27,310 bases of DNA, from IMG/VR virus record IMGVR_UViG_2778261168_000001; one strand, given 5' to 3'. The notes beneath the pieces are model-generated. The model did no database searches and had not been told where the DNA came from. It saw nothing but the letters and a program-made list of their open reading frames with translations. The translations under genes were made by a program, and so were the position numbers. The DNA comes from a virus. Lineage: Duplodnaviria; Heunggongvirae; Uroviricota; Caudoviricetes. Shown piece after piece: positions 4,281 through 26,900 of the stretch. Each line of letters opens with the position of its first letter. The stretch's first letter is position 1.

Positions 4281-5441
4281 TTATTCAACCTCTTCTAAAC
4301 TGCTCACTCTGGACCCTCGGCGGAAATTATCATCATTTTTAACATACTCGTATGAATCCAGAATCAAACCAGATATGCGAAGTATATCTTCCGGATTAGT
4401 TATATGTATCCTTTTACCATCCGTATCAAGTCGAGCTCGTCTTATTTCATTCAACTGAACTTCACTAAGCGAAATAGGTAAAGTTATAAATGAAGATTTT
4501 TTATCATAAAATCTTAACAGCCATCTATTAGTTTTACCATTCAATAGTACACCGAAATATGACTCAGTATCTTTATATTCTATATTATCTTCTGTTTGTA
4601 TGATTTGTTTTACCCTTTCAAATAGCTCCAATTCTTTGGCTGTGGTTATTATGTTGGGGTTTTCTTCATCAACAATGGCGTTATTAACTTGTGTATCCGT
4701 TGCATCATTTTCTTTAGTTTGCTCTACCGGTTGTGTAGATAGCCCGGAAACCACCATTGCGCTAACAGCGCGCTCAACGGCCTGTTTAACTAATGGAGTC
4801 ACGAACTCAAGAAATCTCTGATTAAGTTGTCTCTCAATATTTGAACGACTAGCAACATATCGAACAAACTCCAGATCAACTTCACGAAGACTAGAACTGA
4901 TTGTTTTAGTAAATGAATTCAAATAAACACTTTCTTCAGCCAGTGTCCGTAAAGCCTCTGGTTTGAATTTATCATAACGAAAACGAAATAATTGTGTAAT
5001 ATCGGAGTGAGTTAGAGAATCCATTCTTAATTTTAAAAACGGCGTTGAATCCATTATGTTTTTTTGTTTCAAATCCGTAAAAAAACGCCATTCAACACCA
5101 TTTGTAATGGCTGATATAGTAACTTCCGGTGTTGAATTAAAATATCTTGATAGCTGTGGGCAGTGATTATCAATTTGTTCTGAAAACGATTTCGCCTCAA
5201 TGAACATCACAGGAACATCATGACAAAATAAAGCGTAATCAACCCGTTCATTAGCCTTAACCCCGGGGAAGTCAGCACTATACTCAGCTTTGACTTTTCT
5301 TGGATCATACGGAGTAAAACCAAGAATATCTAGTAATGGCATAATGAGTGCTTGTTTTGTCGTTTCTTCAGTTGTACAAAACACCCCCATTTTTGCAACA
5401 TGCTCTGTGTGTATTTTTAACTTATTTGCAAAATTTTCCAT
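4281..5441 (-). CDS. Moron-encoded protein with N-terminal HsdR-N-like PD-(D/E)xK nuclease domain and a C-terminal domain of unknown function; candidate phage-exclusion protein
   Basis: Track ORF 4281..5456 (391 aa). ATG at 5441 (MENFANKL...) has a GGAGGAG RBS; the ATG at 5456 has none. N-terminus shows TEETTKQALIMPLLDILGF...ERVDYALF...PVMFIEAKSF...ITNGVEWRFF, the motif set of the type I restriction R-subunit N-terminal nuclease domain (compare EcoKI HsdR ...ADYVLF...VVEAK as recalled). Gene is conspicuously AT-rich by eye relative to flanking tail genes. Confidence 0.55.
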   Translation of the reverse strand: MENFANKLKIHTEHVAKMGVFCTTEETTKQALIMPLLDILGFTPYDPRKVKAEYSADFPGVKANERVDYALFCHDVPVMFIEAKSFSEQIDNHCPQLSRYFNSTPEVTISAITNGVEWRFFTDLKQKNIMDSTPFLKLRMDSLTHSDITQLFRFRYDKFKPEALRTLAEESVYLNSFTKTISSSLREVDLEFVRYVASRSNIERQLNQRFLEFVTPLVKQAVERAVSAMVVSGLSTQPVEQTKENDATDTQVNNAIVDEENPNIITTAKELELFERVKQIIQTEDNIEYKDTESYFGVLLNGKTNRWLLRFYDKKSSFITLPISLSEVQLNEIRRARLDTDGKRIHITNPEDILRISGLILDSYEYVKNDDNFRRGSRVSSLEEVE

Positions 5442-5469
5442 GCTTGTCTCCTCCATGGTTACAATCTGT

Positions 5470-17386: not shown

Positions 17387-18701
17387 TGTTCAGGCTCCCT
17401 TGAGTGTTAATTTTTGCCAGACGACGCCCCGGAATTTTGAAAGCACTTAGCCAGACGTTCGGATCGCCCTGATATTCAGTAATGCGACGCCCGGCTTCAT
17501 CGTTGCGGATACGTTTATGCAGTTGCCCCTGCGTACTCATCATTTCTTTTTCGATGGACTGACGGGCAGCACTGAAAATTGCGTCCTCAAGCACAGCCAG
17601 CGTTGCAGAATCCGCAATCGCGCGAATATTGACGTCCTTATGTGCCGGAGAGTGTTTCTGCATAGCGATTAGCGCACGCTTGCGGTAGTCCAGCGCATTT
17701 TCACCAGAAAACGGTGCTGGCGCGTTTTTACCGCAGGCACTGAATGCGGAGTCGGCTTTAGCCTGTGCTTCTGCCAGGGCAGAGTCATTGCGTTCTTTTT
17801 CTGCCTCCTCGTCAGCCTTACGCTGTTCTTCCGCTTCGGAATCAGCCTTTGCTTTCTCCTCAGCGTCTTTAGCTGCCGCCTCGTCAGCTTTGGCTTTTTC
17901 TTCCGCCTCCTTTGCCGCAGCTTTATCAGCTTTACGCTGTTCCTCTGCGGCTTCATCGGCTTTGGCCTTTTCTTCGGCCTCTTTTTTCGCCTGATCTTCG
18001 GCGTCCGCCCGCGCTTTGTCCCGCTGTTCCAGTGAGTCCATGCGCGTGACTACTCCATCGATTTTCTGATTAATGCCGCTCAGGGCATCGTTAACCACCC
18101 CCTGTAACAGGGCCTGGAGTTCTTCTTTTTCCATCTCAATTTCACCTGTATTTGTCACTTCAACCCCTGCGGGGATCCGGTCTTTATCCCACACGCCCAG
18201 CGAGCCGTGGTCTTTCGTCACCAGGGCGATGTGATCAACAAGGAAAGGAACGCCCTCGATTAAAAAATTGGTGTCACCTTCCTGTACTTCCACATTTCCT
18301 GATGTGCTGTTGAACACCACCGACGGACTTGTCGAAACATCCCCCTCAGTGATTTCTTCAACAATGCTCTGGAGATAAACGCGGCACACCGCCCATACCT
18401 CGTCACCCCGGATATACGGCAGCATGACACTGCCGACGATCCGCGATTTAAAATCCTCCTCCGTCAGAACTGCGTCGTCAGGATGGTTTGCGATAACCGG
18501 AAGGCCATTGCATCGCCTTAAAAACTCCTCGTTCAGATAGAGCTTTGGATCACGCCATACGTGCTCTTTCAGCCCGGCGCGATAGGCAAGCCCGGTTCCG
18601 GTTATTCGCAAATTCACCAGCCACATGTTGGAGAATTTCACCGGAGACGGTACGGTTCCGTCCCTGATGCGTTCTGCCACTTCAAGCTCGGTTAAACTCA
18701 C
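17379..18701 (-). CDS. Prohead protease/scaffold-like protein with Lys/Ala/Glu-rich repeat region
   Basis: 440 aa from GTG at 18701 (GGAGAAGGG RBS). Central region is degenerate tandem repeats (AEEKAKADEAA..., EEQRKAD...) typical of scaffold coiled coils. Position between the head-morphogenesis gene and capsid. Confidence 0.45.
   Translation of the reverse strand: MSLTELEVAERIRDGTVPSPVKFSNMWLVNLRITGTGLAYRAGLKEHVWRDPKLYLNEEFLRRCNGLPVIANHPDDAVLTEEDFKSRIVGSVMLPYIRGDEVWAVCRVYLQSIVEEITEGDVSTSPSVVFNSTSGNVEVQEGDTNFLIEGVPFLVDHIALVTKDHGSLGVWDKDRIPAGVEVTNTGEIEMEKEELQALLQGVVNDALSGINQKIDGVVTRMDSLEQRDKARADAEDQAKKEAEEKAKADEAAEEQRKADKAAAKEAEEKAKADEAAAKDAEEKAKADSEAEEQRKADEEAEKERNDSALAEAQAKADSAFSACGKNAPAPFSGENALDYRKRALIAMQKHSPAHKDVNIRAIADSATLAVLEDAIFSAARQSIEKEMMSTQGQLHKRIRNDEAGRRITEYQGDPNVWLSAFKIPGRRLAKINTQGSLNNG
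17774..18029 (-). repeat. Imperfect in-frame tandem repeats encoding a KAE-rich coiled-coil segment
   Basis: DNA shows reiterated gct-tt(c/t)-tc-ttc-(c/g)gc-ctc units on the plus strand; protein shows AEEKAKADEAA x3 and EEQRKAD x2. Confidence 0.6.
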
Positions 18702-19515
18702 GTTTGCCCTTCTCCGTTAAAAATTCGTCGGGTAGTTTCTGAGGGGCGTAGATCGGCAGTGCATCGCAACTGCAATAAACCTCCTCCCCGGCAGCAGTGA
18801 TTTCGTCATAAAAACCATATACGGGCTTAATCAGCCCCTGCTCCAGCGCCCACGAATCGCGGAGGAGATAAATTTTCTCGTCGCGCTCTTTGTGGTCCTG
18901 TCGGTATTTGTAGCCCGGACGCCGCCAGTTCGAATGCCAGCGCAGAGCAATCGCACCACTCTGAACAGCCAGCAGATACTTAACGTTGCTTGCCAGCTTA
19001 TGCCCCTGGTCAATTGCCACCCGGCGACTGATAAAATCCATATCCTTCACGGACTTCTGAAAACTGGACTTCACTTCCCGGCGATCAATTTCGCTCACCC
19101 CGTCAGGCGGAATGGACGTAACCCACCCCTGAAAACGCTGTATGGTTTTCTCGATGGCCTGTTCTCGGTTGAGTTTTATCAGGTTGGCACTGGCGAAAAT
19201 TCGCCTGTCGAGTTCCTTGCGAAACTCAGGTTTCAGTTTTTCAACAGTGATTTTTTTAGGGCCGTCAGGAGGCTGATCCCGTAATGCCCCGCCGTCGATG
19301 ACAAGACGGCTGTAGATAGCGGTGAGATGTTTTCTGGCTACGGTATCATCAGGGGTTTCTCGCTGAGCGGCTACACGGAGTTTCCGGCACCATTGGAGCA
19401 ATGATTTTTCGCTATCCCACCCGTGATTTACGTAGTAGTTAACGGCATCCGTCAGAACCTCATACAGCGTCCTGATCCGTCTCTTCCTCCTCCCCGCCCG
19501 GCTGGAAATTGCCAT
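18682..19515 (-). CDS. Head morphogenesis / minor head protein (Mu F / SPP1 gp7-like by position)
   Basis: Track start 19653 is TTG. ATG at 19515 (MAISSRAGRRKRR..) has an AGGAG RBS 7 nt upstream and overlaps the portal 3' end by 56 nt. Immediately follows the portal gene. Confidence 0.45.
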   Translation of the reverse strand: MAISSRAGRRKRRIRTLYEVLTDAVNYYVNHGWDSEKSLLQWCRKLRVAAQRETPDDTVARKHLTAIYSRLVIDGGALRDQPPDGPKKITVEKLKPEFRKELDRRIFASANLIKLNREQAIEKTIQRFQGWVTSIPPDGVSEIDRREVKSSFQKSVKDMDFISRRVAIDQGHKLASNVKYLLAVQSGAIALRWHSNWRRPGYKYRQDHKERDEKIYLLRDSWALEQGLIKPVYGFYDEITAAGEEVYCSCDALPIYAPQKLPDEFLTEKGKREFNRA

Positions 19516-20896
19516 CAGGCGTCTCCTGCTTCGGTGGTTCATAATTCGCCAGCGCGTCCACATCAATGATGAGTGGAGCTTCGCCATAGGTTTGCGTGGC
19601 ATTAACAAGGCTTGCCAGCCATTCAGTGACGGCGGCACGGTTTTCAGGATCAACCTGTGGCGACACGGCCGAGAAAAGTGCTATCGCCTGTTGAATCACT
19701 TTACTGTCGCTTTCCCGGCGTTTGTCCGGCGACTCCTCCACCAGCTCCTGCCACGTCGCGGTAAATTCACGTCGCCACTGGTAAAACGTGGTTTTATAGT
19801 CGTCGGTTATGATGTCCGGGTAATCATTTTTCAGCGACTGATAAAATTCCTCGTTCCAGGCGATGTACTGCACCAGGCGTTCGAAATAATCCATCACAGG
19901 TTCAATCTGCTGGCGTACACCATCGATATACTGGCTGACGGCTTTCGAATCTTCGGTCCCCTCACCGAAACCATTCGAAAAGGCTTCCTCTTTAATGAGG
20001 ATCGCCGGAACGTCACTCCCTGACGCAATATCGGAAATAATATTGTCGCGTGCAGCGTTTAGCGCACCATCGATGTTTTGTAGATTCAGCGAGGTAACGT
20101 CCTCATCCTTCCCGATACTAAGTACACCTTTATTTTTTGCCTCTTTGACGTTTTCCCTTTTTCGTCCCGTGGCGGCAGCCATGATCCCGTCAAGTTTCGA
20201 ACCATACTGCACAACTTTAGCTACCAGTACGCCCGCCTTCTGGCTGACGAGATCATTAGCCTCCATTGTGTTGATATAGGATTTCAGGGAATAAAGAACG
20301 CGCTGAAACACACTTCGTCCGGTGAATCCGAACGATGAACTCTGAAACTCCAGATAAATCGGTGTGCCGTTGAAGATTTTCAGTGTGCGTGACGGATGCC
20401 AGTCTTTTCCGCCAATCTTCAGCTTTTTATTGGCTTCCTGGAAAAACGGACTGTTTGGGTTCTGGTCAGTCACCATCGAACCGGAAGCGTTCAACGGATC
20501 CCACGCGTTGATATACACATCCTCTTCTGTCAGTCCGAACGTCGGAAGCGGTTCACGACATGAAACACTGTCGGTGCCCACGCCGATCGCTGCAGCACCG
20601 TAGCAACGAGACAGAAAAAACAGATTTTTAATCTTCTCGTTAACCTTCATACGTTCCCATACCTCCTGAAAACGCCGCACAACCCGCTCGTCAGGGTCTG
20701 TCTCCACGTTGTACTGGCGCGGCTTACACATCGCCATCAGTATGGGTTTTTCGACAAGTTTCCCGCCCAGCGGGTGGTACTGCCACAGCAGTTTACACAG
20801 TTCATAGCCAATGTCTGTTCCCGGCTGAATTTCTTCAGCCTCAAGAATGCGCATCAGCGAAGAACTGAGATTTACAGAAATCTCGATCTCAGCCAT
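19460..20896 (-). CDS. Portal protein
   Basis: 478 aa; ATG at 20896, 18 nt after the terminase stop; acidic C-terminal tail (..GGEEEETDQDAV). Position and size. Confidence 0.65.
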   Translation of the reverse strand: MAEIEISVNLSSSLMRILEAEEIQPGTDIGYELCKLLWQYHPLGGKLVEKPILMAMCKPRQYNVETDPDERVVRRFQEVWERMKVNEKIKNLFFLSRCYGAAAIGVGTDSVSCREPLPTFGLTEEDVYINAWDPLNASGSMVTDQNPNSPFFQEANKKLKIGGKDWHPSRTLKIFNGTPIYLEFQSSSFGFTGRSVFQRVLYSLKSYINTMEANDLVSQKAGVLVAKVVQYGSKLDGIMAAATGRKRENVKEAKNKGVLSIGKDEDVTSLNLQNIDGALNAARDNIISDIASGSDVPAILIKEEAFSNGFGEGTEDSKAVSQYIDGVRQQIEPVMDYFERLVQYIAWNEEFYQSLKNDYPDIITDDYKTTFYQWRREFTATWQELVEESPDKRRESDSKVIQQAIALFSAVSPQVDPENRAAVTEWLASLVNATQTYGEAPLIIDVDALANYEPPKQETPDGNFQPGGEEEETDQDAV

Positions 20897-20914: not shown

Positions 20915-22243
20915 TTACAATTCCGCGTAATTACCGTGCGCGATAATCAATCCGTAGGTGTAACAATCGAAAAGGTCATCAGCACGTTTATGTGCGTCTT
21001 TGTCTGCCAGGTGGAACCCGGCTATTTGCTTAATGAGGTGGTTTGCGGTGGTGCGTTTGAATGAAACGGTCTTGTCGTAAGCCTCCCGGACGATTTTGCA
21101 CATCCCCTGATAGTGGTAGCTGGATGCCATCACCGCCCGTTCGTCTTTGCCTTTGCTGGTTAGTGCCGATTTAATCGGCGTCATATCCCAGCCTTCGGTT
21201 TCCGCCTTCTGGTTGAGGATTGCCCCCATCGCAGCGTCTTCCATAAAAATTCCCTGGCTACCCAGACGCGGACGGCATAATTTCGCCAGGCGCTCGAGGT
21301 TGCCATAAACGCCGGGGATATATTCAGGAAGCAATGACGCTTTAATTTGCGTCACATCCCAGTCAATAATCGTCAGTTTTGGCTCGTCCGAATACGTTGA
21401 CTCATAAGCGAAATACACCACGCCAGTACCATCATTTTCGGTCCCGCCTTTCAGCGCCGTATCCATCACTGCGAAAATCATGTCGCAATGCGGCGGCATC
21501 TCAATCGGCTGACCGTCCACCAGCAGCTTATCGACATCGAGTAACGCGTCTTTCGACCAGTCCACGAACTCGGCAAGATATTCCTGCTGCCAGACACGCG
21601 GATCGGATTTCTTCTCCGTTTCCTCCAGTTCTTCTTTCGGAATGTACGGATTCGATGAAGTTGGCGCATAGTGCATGACAAATCCCAGGGATTCATCGTG
21701 GCATATCGCGTAGAAAAAATTGCTCTCGTCGATACCGTTTGGTGTGGAAAATACCCACGCACAGCCACGGTAATCGACAAGCGTCGGGCGTATAGCGCGG
21801 GGCCAGATTTCCTCGAGCATTTCCGGCGATTTAGTGAATGCGGCCTCATCAATCAGCACAGCGTGATACTTACGCCCACGTCCGGCCAGTTTGTTATTGT
21901 CCGTTACCCAAAAATCGATGCGTCCCCCATTGCGGAGGATGATTCGTTTTTCGTTCTTGGACTGACTGAGTATCAGTGGTTGCAGTGCAGCGCAAATCTC
22001 GTCCCAGATTTCCTGGTACTGACGGTATTGAGCGGTAAAGATTCCCACCCTGCCAGCTATCAACTGCCCGGTAGTGGGCACTGCAAATCGTCTGGTTGCA
22101 TAACTGGTGGCGATGTTCACCAGCATCACCGTTTTACCCCAACGGCGACCGCAACATACCGCATGGAAACGCTCTTCTATTGCCGCCGTCCATGCGGCAA
22201 TTTGCCCCTCGTGAGGCTTTGGAAGGAAAATTTCAATCGACAT
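20915..22243 (-). CDS. Terminase large subunit
   Basis: 442 aa; ATG at 22243 with GGGAGTGG RBS. N-terminal Walker A-like motif CCGRRWGKT, and an acidic VLIDEAA segment consistent with Walker B. Position before portal. Confidence 0.8.
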   Translation of the reverse strand: MSIEIFLPKPHEGQIAAWTAAIEERFHAVCCGRRWGKTVMLVNIATSYATRRFAVPTTGQLIAGRVGIFTAQYRQYQEIWDEICAALQPLILSQSKNEKRIILRNGGRIDFWVTDNNKLAGRGRKYHAVLIDEAAFTKSPEMLEEIWPRAIRPTLVDYRGCAWVFSTPNGIDESNFFYAICHDESLGFVMHYAPTSSNPYIPKEELEETEKKSDPRVWQQEYLAEFVDWSKDALLDVDKLLVDGQPIEMPPHCDMIFAVMDTALKGGTENDGTGVVYFAYESTYSDEPKLTIIDWDVTQIKASLLPEYIPGVYGNLERLAKLCRPRLGSQGIFMEDAAMGAILNQKAETEGWDMTPIKSALTSKGKDERAVMASSYHYQGMCKIVREAYDKTVSFKRTTANHLIKQIAGFHLADKDAHKRADDLFDCYTYGLIIAHGNYAEL

Positions 22244-23327
22244 TATCCACTCCCGGCATCGGCAGAGAGTTGTGAATAATTACTTGGTTATTAGCGCCAC
22301 CAGCACCTTTCTTGAGGTTTTCAATCTCGGTGCGCAGTTTTTCATTGCGCAGGCGTTTCCATTCATCATCCAGATCCCTATTTGCAGATCCTTCTTTATT
22401 TTCCGGCAACGGCTTTTTCACAGTCGTCAGATACTTCAGGAGTTCGCGTCGCGCTGCGCTTTTGTCCTCCATCAGTATTTCGACGCCGAATTTCCCGTAC
22501 TTAGCCCCGGCATAAAGCAGTCGCGCATCACCATCAAGCAGGGTGGTATCGGCAATATGGATTTCTCCCCGCCCCTCACCACAGCATTTCGGGCAGTCAT
22601 GATTGGGTATGGCGTTATCAACGAATCCGAGGCCGCCATACTCAGGCGCAGGTTTACCGTCCTTGCTGGCCTTCTCTGCGGCTTTATCGAATTCCTCAAT
22701 ATCGCGCCACTGGTAGAGATGGTTCTCGCCCCAGCAATAACGGCAGTTAACACGGCGAAATTGTGCAAGCTGATTGGGGTCGGCCTGGACAATGGCCATC
22801 AACTGACTCACCAGTAAATCCAGGTCTGCGGTATAGCGTTTCTGGTACTGATTGCGGAAGTAGCTGATGGCACGATAAACCCTGGCATTTCTAAACATGC
22901 GGCTGGCGTTGCTGTTGGCTGTCGCACCTTTCCCTTCATACCCAGCCAGTCGGTATGCCTCTGTCGGCTTTTTACCTTGGGCAACCAGCATGGCGAATTT
23001 TGCCTGCTGGTCAGAAATGCCGAATTCATCGGGACAGAATGAAATTTCCTCCGCGTCGCCCTCATTCAGGCACGCATCGGATACTGGCTTTTTTTTCTGA
23101 GATTTTCCGTTCCGCTTGTGCGCAGTCTGCGCAGATTTTTTCAGCGCACTTTTTTGCGCAGTTTTGCGCATTTCTGTCTGCGCATTTTTCGGAGGTTTTT
23201 TGATGTAACGACGGGCTGTTGCGTAATTAAGTCCCCTTGCTTCACACCATGCCACCGGAGATATACCGGAGCGGGTGTATTCAGCAATATACTCCTGCTG
23301 CAACGCCCCCCAGTCCGGTCTGCTCAT
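22233..23327 (-). CDS. Terminase small subunit candidate (N-terminal HTH, lysine-rich linker, CxxC..CxxC zinc-ribbon-like motif)
   Basis: 364 aa; ATG at 23327; overlaps the terminase large start by 11 nt. N-terminus GALQQEYIAEYTRSGISPVAWCEARGLNYATARRYIKK looks like an HTH; ..CRYCWGE...CPKCCGEG are Cys pairs. Larger than typical TerS, so the call is by position. Confidence 0.45.
   Translation of the reverse strand: MSRPDWGALQQEYIAEYTRSGISPVAWCEARGLNYATARRYIKKPPKNAQTEMRKTAQKSALKKSAQTAHKRNGKSQKKKPVSDACLNEGDAEEISFCPDEFGISDQQAKFAMLVAQGKKPTEAYRLAGYEGKGATANSNASRMFRNARVYRAISYFRNQYQKRYTADLDLLVSQLMAIVQADPNQLAQFRRVNCRYCWGENHLYQWRDIEEFDKAAEKASKDGKPAPEYGGLGFVDNAIPNHDCPKCCGEGRGEIHIADTTLLDGDARLLYAGAKYGKFGVEILMEDKSAARRELLKYLTTVKKPLPENKEGSANRDLDDEWKRLRNEKLRTEIENLKKGAGGANNQVIIHNSLPMPGVDNVD
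23119..23184. repeat. Six phased copies of (T/A)GCGCA separated by T-runs inside the terminase small-subunit candidate gene
   Basis: TGCGCA at 23119, 23128, 23155, 23165 and 23179, and AGCGCA at 23143, with intervening T4 to T6 runs. Region encodes the Lys/Ala-rich linker. Confidence 0.6.
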
Positions 23328-23330
23328 CAG

Positions 23331-23582
23331 TTAATCCTGATTTTTATCCACCCTGAGTAGTTCGCGCAGGGCAAAGGCATCCCCTTTTCTGGCAAGCTTA
23401 AACAATGCCGCTCGTAGCTCGGCTTCACCTTTCGCTCTGCCCTTACGGATGGACGCATAAAAATTTGTCATTGCTTCCCGATTTTCTTTCAGTCGGTTCA
23501 GATCAACATCCAGAACGTCAGCGATTTGTTGTGCAGTCATCCGGCACGCTGCCAGAGACTCGACTTTCGAATACGGAATCAT
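23331..23582 (-). CDS. Small HTH DNA-binding protein upstream of the packaging genes
   Basis: 83 aa; ATG at 23582 with GGGGGTGA RBS; stop is 3 nt before the next start. MTAQQIADVLDVDLNRLKEN is HTH-like. Confidence 0.4.
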   Translation of the reverse strand: MIPYSKVESLAACRMTAQQIADVLDVDLNRLKENREAMTNFYASIRKGRAKGEAELRAALFKLARKGDAFALRELLRVDKNQD

Positions 23583-24450
23583 TTGTCACCCCCATTGATA
23601 TGCAGGGTGTCTTCTTCCTGTATTTTTCGTGAATGATTTTTACTGCAGCGTTGTTCCAGGTGACCTGATGGTGAATGCGTTTATGGCTGGCGCCCATCAG
23701 GGATATTTTTACGCACGACGGCGCATACATGACGGAGTAAAAACTTTTAACGTAGGTTCCGGAATCCAGATACAGTTCGGTCATTCCGCCGCTGTTTTTC
23801 TGCGTCTGTTTCTGCCCTAACTGGACAGCACCAATCGTCATAAACAACTCACCACGGCGACCGAGATTCGTGTACGTATTCACATCCTCGTTAATGCGCC
23901 CCATGAATGAGAACGGTCGATCAACCGAACAGATAAAGCTGTTCATTGCCTTGCGTTTCACCCACGAAGCATGGCCGCCATTGTCACCAAGAAAATCCCC
24001 GCCCTGCGACATAGCGATGGAAAGAGCAGGTATTGATTCGTAGTACGCCAGCATTTCAGAAAGGATCGCATCCAGTTTCCTTATCGGAAAATAGGCCTGG
24101 TCATAGTTGCGATCCACCCGAAACTGGAACTCGTGATAATCATCATCGAGCTGAATGAAGTATTTACACCCGACCAGTTTTGCCAGGTCGAAACAGGCAT
24201 TACGGGCGTAAAAAATTGAGCGGCGGTCACAGAAATTATCGGCTTCGTCAAAACGACTGGCGATATCGGCTTTGGAAAACACCAGCACCTGTTCACCAAA
24301 TTCAGCCATGTATTGATGCCGTGTCTTATCTTCATCATCAACAACGATAAAAATTTTCCCGGTATAGCCAGCACGACGCAACGTCCGGTAAGTCAGAACT
24401 TTGTCCGGTCGCCCGTGAGTCAGAATAAAGGCGCAAAAATCATCACGCAT
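23518..24450 (-). CDS. Soluble GT-A-fold (family 2-like) nucleotide-sugar transferase-like protein
   Basis: Track start 24471; the ATG at 24450 (MRDDFCAF..) has a very strong GAGGAGGAGG RBS. N-terminus FILTHGRPDKVL...GKIFIVVDDED and a later FIQLDDDYHEF (DxD-type) motif match the GT-A N-terminal signature. No obvious transmembrane segments. Confidence 0.45.
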   Translation of the reverse strand: MRDDFCAFILTHGRPDKVLTYRTLRRAGYTGKIFIVVDDEDKTRHQYMAEFGEQVLVFSKADIASRFDEADNFCDRRSIFYARNACFDLAKLVGCKYFIQLDDDYHEFQFRVDRNYDQAYFPIRKLDAILSEMLAYYESIPALSIAMSQGGDFLGDNGGHASWVKRKAMNSFICSVDRPFSFMGRINEDVNTYTNLGRRGELFMTIGAVQLGQKQTQKNSGGMTELYLDSGTYVKSFYSVMYAPSCVKISLMGASHKRIHHQVTWNNAAVKIIHEKYRKKTPCISMGVTNDSVFESRVSGSVPDDCTTNR

Positions 24451-25234
24451 ATTCCTCCTCCTCACCACCATGCATGATCTCCACCATGCGCTGCGTCATC
24501 CGGACAAATCCATTTTCAATAGCCTGCTGATAATCAATGATCACCAGCGCCGACTCCTCGAAAAAACACTGAATTTCAGCGGGGGCGTGAGCGTAATAGT
24601 CCGCAATTCTGCTGAAATTAAACACCGTGTGACGTTCTGCCGCACACAAGAGGAACTTCTCAATATCAGGCTCAAGGGACGCCGAACGTATCCGGCTGAT
24701 CAACTCCTGAGTTTTCGTATCGTCGTACAGTTCACTGATATCTGGTTTATCGCCCGACGGCTCATAAACAGGCGTATCAATTTTCGTCGTGTACGGCTCC
24801 TCCTCATTTCCTGTACCGGGCAAAACATCCGTCAACAGTTCATCAATTTCTGTCGGGATGAAGCCTGTCAGGGAGACATCAAAATCAGCATTGATTAGGT
24901 CCGACAGCTCCATCCGCAACAGATCTTCATCCCAGCCAGCATTCATCGGCAGGCGATTATCTGCCAGGCGGTACGCCTTTTTCTGCTCATCCGTCAGGCC
25001 AGACAGAACAATGACCGGAACAGAATCCATTTTGAGCATTTCAGCCGCCATAACACGACCGTGACCCGCAATAATTTCGCCCTTTTCGTCAATCAGCACC
25101 GGATTAGTCCAGCCGAATTGCTTAATACTTTCTACCAGTTGTGCCACCTGCTCAGTACTGTGCGTCCTGGCGTTGTGCGCATACGGTGACAATTCTTGTA
25201 ATGGGCGATAGACTATCTTTAATTTCTCGCTCAT
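24443..25234 (-). CDS. ParB-like nuclease domain protein
   Basis: 263 aa; ATG at 25234. N-terminus YRPLQELSPYAHNARTHSTEQVAQLVESIKQFGWTNPVLIDEKGEIIAGHGR contains the ParB/sulfiredoxin-fold GxxR box (AGHGR). Overlaps the next gene start, so the two are co-operonic. Confidence 0.65.
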   Translation of the reverse strand: MSEKLKIVYRPLQELSPYAHNARTHSTEQVAQLVESIKQFGWTNPVLIDEKGEIIAGHGRVMAAEMLKMDSVPVIVLSGLTDEQKKAYRLADNRLPMNAGWDEDLLRMELSDLINADFDVSLTGFIPTEIDELLTDVLPGTGNEEEPYTTKIDTPVYEPSGDKPDISELYDDTKTQELISRIRSASLEPDIEKFLLCAAERHTVFNFSRIADYYAHAPAEIQCFFEESALVIIDYQQAIENGFVRMTQRMVEIMHGGEEEEYA

Positions 25235-25261: not shown

Positions 25262-25285
25262 CCCCAGCAGCCAGTGCTACTGGGG
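25262..25285 (-). terminator. Possible intrinsic terminator downstream of trkG
   Basis: Plus reads ccccagcag-ccagtg-ctactgggg (9-bp stem with 1 mismatch); the minus-strand stem is followed by TGCGTTTTATT. Confidence 0.35.
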
Positions 25286-25371: not shown

Positions 25372-26829
25372 TTAGGAGCGCCAAAAAAAACCTGAAAACA
25401 ATATAATAACAGGATAAATTTCAAGGCGACCAAGAATCATAGCTATGCACATTAAACATTTTGCAATGTCATTAAGCACTCCGAATGACGATGCAGTAGC
25501 CCCAAAACCTAATCCCATATTATTAATACATGCAGCCACTGTTGCAAATGATGTAAGAAAATCATATCCCATACCATTTAACACCAGTATAAAAAACACC
25601 GTGAAGAGAGTATAAAGAAAAAAGAAACTCCATACAGACCTCATTACACGATCTGTAACTATCTTCCCTCCTACATTTACACTCAACAACGCTCTGGGAT
25701 GAGAAAGCTGATTTATCTCGTGTTTGCTTTGTTTGAAAAGTATAAGAAATCGAAGTGACTTAATTCCACCACAAGTTGAACCTATACATCCCCCAAAGAA
25801 ACTTGACAACAGCAAAAACACTATCGTGTGCGTGGGCCAACTTGCATAATCCTGCGTAGCTAAACCATTATCAGTGAGCATGGAGCTGGCAAGAAAAAAC
25901 GAATGAATAAAACTTCCATGCAAGTCATACATACCTATATGCCAGACCTGGAAAGAGGTAACAATGATCACCCCTAAGGCTATTAACAGAAAGAAACGAA
26001 GTTCAATATCTCTGATTAAAGGTTTTATCGTTTTCCTGCTAATAACAATATACCAAAGAGTGAAGTTGAAAGCCGATAGCAGGGAAAAAGAACCAGCCAC
26101 CAGCTCAACCAAATAGTTATTAAAATATCCGATACTCTCGCTATGAGTTGAGAAACCACCAAGCGAAACTGTGGAAATCCCGTGACAAATAGCATCAAAC
26201 AAAGGCATTCCTGCAAGTCTATAACAGACAATACAAGCAATACCTAATAAAGAATAAGTTATCCACAGTGTCCGTGACGTATCGGCCAGGCGGGGAGTGA
26301 GTTTGTCATCCTTAAATGGCCCCGGCATTTCTGACTGATAAAGCTTTGCACCACCAATACCCAATAATGGCAATACAGCAACCGCCAGAACAATAACTCC
26401 TAAACCACCTATAAAATTTAACTGTGACCGATAGTACAAATATGCCCGAGGTAATGAACTAACATCATCAATTACAGTTGCTCCTGTTGTTGTTATTCCA
26501 GAAACCCCTTCAAACAGAGCATCAATGAACGTTAAATTAAGTTCTGAGTCAATCCATAAAGGGAATGCACTAATAACAGAAAACAAAATCCAAAACATTA
26601 CAATTATAATAAACCCATCACGGGTACGTAATTGAATGCCAGATTTCTTAGTTGTATACCACGCTCCGCCACCAATGCAAAAAAATATAACGAAAGTTAT
26701 AAAGAAAACGAACAGGCTTTTTTCTTTATAAAACAATGCTACAACCATTGGTGGCAACATTGAAAGACTATAGAGCCAAACCAGGAACCCACACATATGA
26801 GTAACAACTCTTACATGAGATGTATTCAT
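25372..26829 (-). CDS. trkG: TrkG/TrkH-family potassium uptake transporter (prophage cargo)
   Basis: 485 aa from ATG at 26829 (MNTSHVRVV..); the track's 491-aa version starts at TTG 26847, which has an AAGGTGG SD. Multiple membrane helices with the reiterated glycine-containing pore motifs of TrkH/KtrB (FCIGGGAWY, TTGATV, NFIGGLGV, STVSLGGFS, GGCIGSTCGG, INNMGLGFGAT). Gene is visibly AT-rich. Rz/Rz1-trkG is the Rac prophage arrangement as I recall it. Confidence 0.85.
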   Translation of the reverse strand: MNTSHVRVVTHMCGFLVWLYSLSMLPPMVVALFYKEKSLFVFFITFVIFFCIGGGAWYTTKKSGIQLRTRDGFIIIVMFWILFSVISAFPLWIDSELNLTFIDALFEGVSGITTTGATVIDDVSSLPRAYLYYRSQLNFIGGLGVIVLAVAVLPLLGIGGAKLYQSEMPGPFKDDKLTPRLADTSRTLWITYSLLGIACIVCYRLAGMPLFDAICHGISTVSLGGFSTHSESIGYFNNYLVELVAGSFSLLSAFNFTLWYIVISRKTIKPLIRDIELRFFLLIALGVIIVTSFQVWHIGMYDLHGSFIHSFFLASSMLTDNGLATQDYASWPTHTIVFLLLSSFFGGCIGSTCGGIKSLRFLILFKQSKHEINQLSHPRALLSVNVGGKIVTDRVMRSVWSFFFLYTLFTVFFILVLNGMGYDFLTSFATVAACINNMGLGFGATASSFGVLNDIAKCLMCIAMILGRLEIYPVIILFSGFFWRS

Positions 26830-26846
26830 ATCTAAATATTCTTTCA

Positions 26847-26900
26847 ATTATAACCACCTTGCTGCAATATTATGATTATACTGTATAAAATTTAACTCCT
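26847..26900 (-). promoter_or_regulatory. AT-rich upstream region of trkG with two perfect TATAAT hexamers (candidate promoter)
   Basis: Minus-strand TATAAT at 26880..26875 and 26852..26847; no convincing -35 found. Confidence 0.25.

Follow-up and report, generated by a model that had tools for sequence, protein, structure and literature searches.

Two overlapping minus-strand genes in a viral sequence of 27,310 nucleotides (nt) (IMG/VR record IMGVR_UViG_2778261168_000001, Caudoviricetes; the whole stretch is called the window here) were predicted to encode a soluble GT-A glycosyltransferase of the TAGT family and a ParB-fold partner protein. Together they appear, with moderate confidence, to constitute a self-contained glycosylation cassette found in tailed viruses, made up of the TAGT enzyme and the ParB-fold protein dedicated to it. 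The explanation that best fits the pair, on which confidence is about evenly divided, is a ParB-assisted, DNA-directed glycosyltransferase that would act late in infection. Both protein families are already known and labelled in RefSeq. The window, whose genes lie on the minus strand, is the late region, from lysis to tail-fibre genes, of a Rac-type lambdoid prophage of Escherichia coli.

The longest open reading frame (ORF) for the transferase, at 23518-24471, encodes 317 amino acids (aa), but translation almost certainly begins at an ATG at 24450, which yields a protein of 310 aa. A GAGGAGGA Shine-Dalgarno sequence precedes this ATG, which overlaps the stop codon of the partner gene by 8 nt (ATGCGTGA); the start annotated in RefSeq is identical. 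A preliminary description of this DNA had placed two co-operonic, overlapping genes between trkG and the helix-turn-helix (HTH)/terminase genes, and both ORFs were recovered there, translationally coupled through the ATGCGTGA overlap. Abutting or overlapping gene junctions were found in related loci too.

The transferase scored 125.3 bits against the TAGT profile PF20691 (cutoff, 27.5 bits) and aligned to 202 of its 205 positions, and the same family was present in 120 of 120 transferase homologues among the matches listed. It also matched phrog_842, a PHROG named after the T2/T6 beta-glucosyl-HMC-alpha-glucosyltransferase, and the RefSeq name for the protein is "GREB1-related protein." An AlphaFold2 model had a predicted local distance difference test score (pLDDT) of 72.5, with values above 90 across most of residues 1-150. 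In Foldseek searches this model matched the solved GT-A enzymes GalS1, SpsA, SunS, K4CP, and glycogenin (E values of 3e-5 to 1e-3), and it matched predicted viral TAGT proteins much better (E = 1e-22; template modelling scores of 0.73-0.81). A search of PDB sequences with the TAGT profile gave nothing below E = 0.6, and the transferase therefore has no close relative with a solved structure. No NCBIfam model was found for the transferase, and no PADLOC defence-system model matched it. The earlier proposal of a family-2-like glycosyltransferase thus needs narrowing: a soluble GT-A transferase is borne out by the AlphaFold model and Foldseek, but the protein belongs to TAGT and is not generically GT2-like. 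Both the structure and profile searches gave GT-A/TAGT, rather than a non-transferase fold, for the 310-aa product.

The FILTHGRPDK (residues 8-17), IVVDDED (35-41), and DDD (102-104) motifs previously pointed out are all present in the transferase, as is AGHGR in the partner. R14, D102-D104, and D189 were invariant, and E188 and Y193 were invariant or nearly so, in alignments of 13 and 49 sequences. The protein thus matches the R...DDD...EDY/F active-site signature of phage GT-A DNA glycosyltransferases and trypanosome JGT (bioRxiv 10.1101/2023.12.21.572611), with residue correspondence to the published enzymes inferred rather than aligned. On these profiles and models the gene product is assigned as a TAGT glycosyltransferase with an intact active-site signature for a nucleoside diphosphate (NDP)-sugar. 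The transferase is basic (isoelectric point [pI], 8.3). The C-terminal tail of the E. coli protein is about 20 residues longer than in relatives (285-290 aa), residues 282-310 are predicted to be disordered (pLDDT < 50), and the tail (window 23518-23582) overlaps the small HTH-like gene by 23-65 nt, according to the start codon chosen.

The highest 19-residue Kyte-Doolittle mean in the transferase was 1.08, and because of this the protein is predicted to be soluble with no membrane segment, as had been claimed for it; neither of the two proteins has a hydrophobic segment. Bactoprenol-linked serotype conversion was rejected as a function on this ground. GtrB, which is also a GT-A enzyme encoded by enterobacterial prophages, is anchored in the membrane and has GtrA and GtrC as its flippase/transferase partners, close to the attachment site. 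In contrast, the window transferase lacks a hydrophobic segment, neighbours trkG, ParB, and terminase genes, and belongs to a different family.

Assignment of the partner to the ParB/Srx fold, also part of the preliminary description, was upheld by a match to ParB_N (PF02195) of 29.4 bits (cutoff, 26.3), by a match of Spo0J (1vz0) to residues 7-93 (E = 1.8e-5), and by a confident model of the N-terminal domain (pLDDT, 80-93). RefSeq labels the protein "ParB/Srx family N-terminal domain-containing protein"; its TIGR00180 score was 38 bits (cutoff, 58) and covered the N-terminal domain only. Candidate nucleoside triphosphate (NTP)-contact residues are N21/R23 in Box I, G57/R60 in Box II (the GHGR of AGHGR, residues 56-60), and D92/N93 in Box III. 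The three boxes read Q/NxR, GxxR, and E/D-N, respectively, and in ParB CTPases the corresponding positions touch the nucleotide. Among homologues of the partner, N21, G57, and N93 were invariant, and R60 and D92 were at least 90% conserved. His58 stands where GERR has its catalytic Glu; which NTP, if any, a ParB-fold protein binds is not predictable (PMC12704722). The N-terminal domain is followed by a linker of about 30 residues that is predicted to be disordered (pLDDT < 50 for residues 137-166) and that carries a Y-x6-P-x-Y-x-P motif, invariant across homologues from bacterial and archaeal viruses. The C-terminal domain is helical, with R201, H202, and D234 invariant, and it matched no Pfam family. 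A ParABS partition role was rejected, as neither ParA nor an HTH nor parS was found: parA is absent from the annotations of two Rac-type prophages, and when the surroundings of the pair were searched for parS-like and other repeats, only short ones at chance level came up, with no palindromic repeat nearby.

Conservation of the pair was examined in 80 IMG/VR loci, which were viral contigs retrieved with a TAGT alignment. A partner homologue was encoded on the same strand in all 80, and it abutted or overlapped the TAGT start in 79; in the other locus (L086) it lay 3 kb upstream. The TAGT protein of L086 (positions 10001-11719; 572 aa) is fused to a class I S-adenosylmethionine (SAM)-dependent methyltransferase domain (Methyltransf_12/23/25, residues about 420-510). 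The pair was also present in Lactobacillus gasseri phage phi jlb1, Nocardia phage NTR1, the haloarchaeal virus HHTV-2, Vibrio phages, and five further metagenomic lineages, and in Lactobacillus delbrueckii phage c5 the two genes follow the cos site directly, as ORF1 and ORF2. The co-occurrence across phages that had been put forward as a check was therefore found in bacterial and archaeal viruses alike. "Salmonella phage SPF_0923" was dropped as a complete genome with the pair, since that record consists of prophage and host DNA (sitABCD, ompN).

A tblastn search with partner residues 146-263, which cover these two parts, returned 28 phage records, every one of them with a TAGT gene immediately downstream. 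The C-terminal domain formed at least 1180 clusters at 50% identity, nearly always at the C terminus of proteins of about 260 aa, and in these searches it is found only beside TAGT genes. In Vibrio phage pv27 (L096, 6459-6878; 191-kb Vibrio phages) and in one IMG/VR locus (L077, 9601-10005), the partner comprises the linker motif and C-terminal domain alone (134-139 aa), without the ParB N-terminal domain. Because the partners of these viruses are reduced to that part, the linker and C-terminal domain can be regarded as the TAGT-specific element.

A natural fusion of the two proteins was found as well. A 534-aa protein (P0381) that joins a divergent TAGT domain to the whole partner was encoded on three independent contigs (L098, 214-1818; L099, 26-1630; and a 16.6-kb JGI contig). 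On the longer contig, the fusion gene is followed by a second TAGT gene and then a Terminase_6N gene, and two genes upstream of it there is one for a Dam methylase; the two consecutive transferases suggest that a disaccharide is built. Across loci, ParB and TAGT sequence identities were correlated (Spearman coefficient of 0.89; n = 33 loci that are not phylogenetically independent). Both genes are under purifying selection, with ratios of nonsynonymous to synonymous substitution rates (dN/dS) of 0.05-0.13. These ratios, together with recurrence of the pair across domains of life, place the association far beyond chance.

The pair lies directly upstream of the terminase genes in the window, and in 17 diverse loci the first large downstream ORF was nearly always a terminase. 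Such a position, and the fact that earlier authors tied phage ParB genes to packaging (PMC8256090), would suit a packaging accessory without glycosyl transfer, in which the ParB-fold protein is a pac/cos-recognition or nuclease factor and the transferase-like protein is structural. That reading is very unlikely. The transferase carries an invariant catalytic signature, no parS-like repeat was found near the pair, and no nuclease motif or evidence was found for the partner. The terminases that follow the pair belong to at least four unrelated families (Terminase_3, Terminase_6N, TerL_ATPase, lambda GpA, and Terminase_2 small subunits were found), and many of these phages keep an HNH or TerS gene of their own. 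Because the terminase families are unrelated, the association is with the packaging position, and presumably its timing, rather than with one packaging machine. Furthermore, the cassette of Vibrio jumbo phages is located among SSB, primase, exonuclease, and helicase genes, with no terminase adjoining.

In the preferred explanation, a DNA-directed glycosyltransferase assisted by ParB, the partner would bind the basic transferase through its linker motif and C-terminal domain and would hold or activate it on double-stranded DNA (dsDNA), possibly by acting as a clamp gated by an NTP. Glycosylation of the replicated phage DNA would come late, shortly before or during packaging, and would protect the DNA of the progeny against host nucleases and further defences that target DNA. 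From the analogy to ParB-dependent dioxygenases, the fusion, and the strict pairing, we infer the complex, its action on duplex DNA, and late DNA glycosylation; the protective role is an extrapolation from these. Phage thymine dioxygenases have been shown to require cognate HTH-less ParB homologues, specifically on dsDNA (PMC13229309, published in 2026), and phage ParB proteins were previously proposed to direct DNA-modification enzymes during packaging (PMC8256090). A link to DNA is also supported by the placement of the Vibrio cassette among replication genes, by the SAM-methyltransferase fusion, and by neighbouring DNA methylases; DNA or SAM-dependent methyltransferases occur as occasional neighbours or fusions of the cassette.

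The partner resembles two kinds of phage protein: the ParB homologues that activate DNA dioxygenases, and the ParB modules found in fusions with DNA methyltransferases. In the 5mYOX176/ParB176 system (PMC13229309), ParB176 is composed of a nucleotide-binding domain, a short helical segment, a disordered linker of about 50 aa, and a C-terminal domain, with no HTH, and it is encoded beside the DNA-modifying enzyme that it activates specifically on dsDNA. The window partner has the same layout and likewise lies beside the gene for its presumed enzyme, but that enzyme is a glycosyltransferase and not a dioxygenase, and the C-terminal domain of the partner forms a distinct family confined to TAGT loci. 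The N-terminal domain is of the type fused to phage DNA methyltransferases (phrog_498, 7.8e-51; PADLOC MTase_II, 1.6e-38); ParB::methyltransferase fusions carrying this domain type are enriched in prophages (PMC12704722). In those proteins the enzyme is fused and moves a methyl group, whereas the predicted sugar-transferring enzyme of the window is a separate polypeptide, although the natural TAGT::ParB fusion described above exists.

A characterised enzyme of the same Pfam family, close in kind to the window transferase, is the T2/T6 beta-glucosyl-HMC-alpha-glucosyltransferase (PF20691), which adds a second glucose to glucosyl-hydroxymethylcytosine in DNA (PMC13216743; PMC13390438). It shares the GT-A fold, is likewise soluble and phage-encoded, and has a length of about 280-310 aa, but it depends on dCMP hydroxymethylase and an alpha-glucosyltransferase and has no ParB partner; the context of the window lacks those enzymes, and identity between T4-like homologues and the window transferase is only 22-24%. 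The phage GT-A enzymes associated with TET/5mYOX, as well as JGT, share the R...DDD...EDY/F signature, frequently have ParB and terminase genes as neighbours, and act on DNA after replication. They use 5-hydroxymethylcytosine (5hmC) or 5-hydroxymethyluracil (5hmU) supplied by an adjacent methyltransferase/dioxygenase pair or a thymidylate-synthase homologue, none of which was found here.

Several observations weigh against a DNA-directed enzyme, among them the lack of an obvious acceptor. The TAGT-type enzymes known so far require 5hmC, 5hmU, or a first sugar (bioRxiv 10.1101/2023.12.21.572611; PMC13390438; PMC13216743). The source of such an acceptor was sought in per-gene Pfam listings for five metagenomic lineages and by targeted scans. 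No TET/JBP dioxygenase, hydroxymethylase, or first-sugar glycosyltransferase was annotated in two Rac-type prophages or in phage c5 (genome of 31.8 kb), in which the larger ORFs of unknown function had no such Pfam hit, and no TET_JBP, hydroxymethylase, or alpha- or beta-glucosyltransferase was recorded within 10 kb on either side of the pair in the five lineages with Pfam records. With no source of hydroxymethyl-pyrimidine found, the known chemistry of the family has no obvious substrate, and DNA modification in any cassette-carrying phage is not documented in the literature searched. The partner itself, which the preliminary description had called a DNA-binding nuclease domain, did not live up to that name: it is acidic (pI 4.5), the Pfam search recognised neither an HTH nor any other DNA-binding domain in it, and nothing indicative of a nuclease was found. 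Its engagement of DNA is therefore presumed. The structure model of its C-terminal domain is also of low confidence.

A conventional hydroxymethyl-pyrimidine- or sugar-extending glycosyltransferase, which would obtain its acceptor from a divergent and unrecognised oxygenase or hydroxymethylase or from the DNA of another phage (e.g., a superinfecting T-even phage), would keep to the known chemistry of the family. Divergent oxygenases do exist, as thousands of contigs that match 5mYOX profiles lack a Pfam TET/JBP annotation (PMC13229309), and the negative result for oxygenases rests on selected ORFs and not on each ORF of each locus. Even so, this possibility is improbable. The small genome of phage c5 has little room, and its unknown ORFs of 139-208 aa had no oxygenase- or thymidylate-synthase-like match; no candidate was annotated in the Rac-type prophages or recorded in the five metagenomic lineages. 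Action on the DNA of a competitor fits poorly with occurrence of the cassette in virulent as well as temperate phages and in late or replication operons.

A more radical answer would be that the ParB-partnered TAGT enzyme glycosylates DNA without prior hydroxymethylation, placing a sugar directly onto a canonical base or another native DNA group under the guidance of an NTP-gated ParB-type clamp. This proposal is tentative and rather doubtful. If it holds, it would represent one-enzyme, post-replicative DNA glycosylation of a kind not known from any virus, present in temperate E. coli phages, Lactobacillus dairy phages, and haloarchaeal viruses.

The absence of a hydroxymethyl-base pathway from the genomes and loci examined is also compatible with a protein glycosyltransferase. 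Its target for O-glycosylation would be the invariant Tyr/Thr of the partner (PYTxKIDTPVYEPS motif, in the manner of glycogenin), a terminase or portal protein, or a protein of the host, with the ParB-fold protein serving as substrate or for targeting. The invariant Tyr/Pro motif in the disordered linker of the partner and the structural matches to self-glucosylating glycogenin and peptide S-glycosyltransferases agree with this. So does GREB1, a large eukaryotic protein with a TAGT domain and no ParB partner, which is reported to O-GlcNAcylate the oestrogen receptor (PMC7968844); this precedent counts against a DNA target. However, the characterised viral and trypanosome members of the family all act on DNA, the N-terminal domain of the partner is of a type tied to DNA-modifying enzymes, and the cassette is independent of the terminase family and lies among replication rather than virion genes in the Vibrio phages. 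Genes for virion glycosylation are expected after the capsid gene, as in mycobacteriophage virion glycosylation. In one locus (L088), that place is occupied by four consecutive GT2-family genes just downstream of the capsid gene (17837-20316), which may be a separate virion-glycosylation cluster, while the ParB-TAGT pair remains upstream of the terminase. A protein target was accordingly judged unlikely.

Features of the cassette and its surroundings are listed in Table 1. Gene order in the window is rzoR, trkG, the ParB-like gene, the transferase gene, a small HTH-like ORF, TerS, TerL, portal, head, sheath, baseplate, and fibre. The small HTH-like ORF overlaps the 3' end of the transferase gene and matched phrog_309, part of the terminase small subunit (2.5e-22); as it is confined to enterobacterial loci, it is context and does not belong to the core of the cassette.

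Table 1. Positions of the ParB-TAGT pair, its predicted domains and motifs, and adjoining features in the window
Feature	Position	Strand	Context or evidence
trkG (moron)	25372-26847	-	Between lysis genes and ParB-TAGT pair
Terminator-like GC-rich hairpin, then TGCGTTTTAT	25262-25285	-	27 nt upstream of ParB-like gene start
ParB/Srx-fold partner gene, 263 aa	24443-25234	-	Pfam ParB_N 8e-7; phrog_620 1e-90
Partner N-terminal ParB nucleotide-binding-type domain, aa 1-135	24830-25234	-	Alignments and structure model
Partner linker motif Y148-x6-P155-x-Y157-x-P159 (PYTTKIDTPVYEPS)	24755-24799	-	Invariant in homologues
Partner C-terminal helical domain, aa about 170-255	24470-24727	-	tblastn, cluster search
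Translational-coupling junction	24443-24460	-	GAGGAGGA Shine-Dalgarno at 24453-24460 and ATGCGTGA overlap at 24443-24450
TAGT-family GT-A glycosyltransferase, 310 aa	23518-24450	-	PF20691 4e-36; phrog_842 1e-103
DDD (D102-D104), DxD-type metal/NDP-sugar motif	24139-24147	-	Alignments
Small HTH-like protein	23331-23582	-	83 aa for longest ORF; 69 aa from RefSeq start 23540
TerS	22233-23327	-	Pfam/PHROG searches; within 20915-23327 terminase block
TerL	20915-22243	-	Pfam/PHROG searches

In prophages without trkG, homology to the window begins at 25284, at the hairpin upstream of the ParB-like gene. Because these prophages share the sequence up to that point, the hairpin belongs to or travels with the cassette and not with trkG; position 25284 also marks the boundary of the trkG moron. 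The hairpin may shield the pair from transcription that comes from trkG, which would leave only antiterminated late transcription to read the two genes.

The region was detected in 1619 of 5426 complete E. coli genomes (about 30%), and it was essentially full length in 867; enterotoxigenic E. coli (ETEC) H10407 is a strain with the full region. In K-12 MG1655, ynaK corresponds to the first 85 codons of the partner gene and the transferase gene is lost (L092, 1425377-1425980). Homology of K-12 to the window (24981-25234) stops at 24981, inside the ParB-like gene, at a deletion junction. Given this truncation and the lack of relationship of ydaY to either gene, K-12 MG1655 is without the cassette, and ydaY was rejected as a candidate K-12 transferase.

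This loss, the insertion sequence (IS) insertions and truncations of the pair in some strains, and the often defective state of Rac prophages would be expected if the prophage were cryptic and the pair were decaying in it, without any function left in this genome. Such decay is most improbable, as both ORFs are intact in the window and in most of 46 near-identical viral loci, dN/dS ratios in both genes are low, and the window holds a complete late region. In two loci (L001, 21144-21935; L002, 35041-35832), RefSeq calls the partner gene a 258-nt partial pseudogene ("ynaK, missing C-terminus") despite an intact ORF of 263 codons, which is an annotation artefact that hides a full-length gene.

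Two other genes of the window were noted. A gene for a 391-aa endonuclease (4281-5456, minus strand; phrog_4225, 1e-148), the RefSeq homologue of which is labelled "type I restriction endonuclease," lies between baseplate and tail genes in a patch of low GC content (0.36-0.40 versus about 0.50 around it); it resembles a moron and may serve in defence or exclusion. The 478-aa protein encoded directly after TerL (19460-20896, minus strand) is the portal (phrog_146, 2e-74) and matched no PADLOC model; the RefSeq label of its homologue, "anti-CBASS protein Acb1 family protein," is probably a misnomer.

Decoration of phage DNA with sugars is a main escape route from restriction, CRISPR, and DNA-glycosylase defences, and to our knowledge every known DNA-sugar pathway starts from a hydroxymethylated or hydroxylated pyrimidine. 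The TAGT family was reportedly defined by Iyer et al. in 2013 (NAR 41:7635), who are also said to have discussed phage ParB genes. An obligate cassette of a TAGT enzyme and a ParB-fold protein that crosses domains of life was not described in the literature searched, and neither were the private C-terminal domain of the partner and the occurrence of the cassette without a hydroxymethyl-base pathway; the paper by Iyer et al., which lay outside that search, may have noted the neighbourhood. "Solitary" TAGT genes were recorded in 288 of 753 glycosyltransferase-carrying phage genomes, and their function was called undefined (PMC13216743, published in 2026). The pairing with ParB is mentioned neither there nor in a 2025 survey of the ParB-CTPase fold (PMC12704722).

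A large share of such "solitary" TAGT genes is not solitary: they are obligately paired with a gene for a ParB-fold protein of their own, and the resulting cassette precedes the packaging genes in viruses of Proteobacteria, Firmicutes, Actinobacteria, and Archaea. Ordinary E. coli strains, ETEC H10407 among them, carry the genes, and K-12 provides a natural null background. If DNA is what the cassette modifies, the principle that ParB activates a DNA-modifying enzyme would extend from dioxygenases to glycosyltransferases, and a new acceptor chemistry may emerge. If a protein is modified, the pair would represent a new phage post-translational system tied to packaging.

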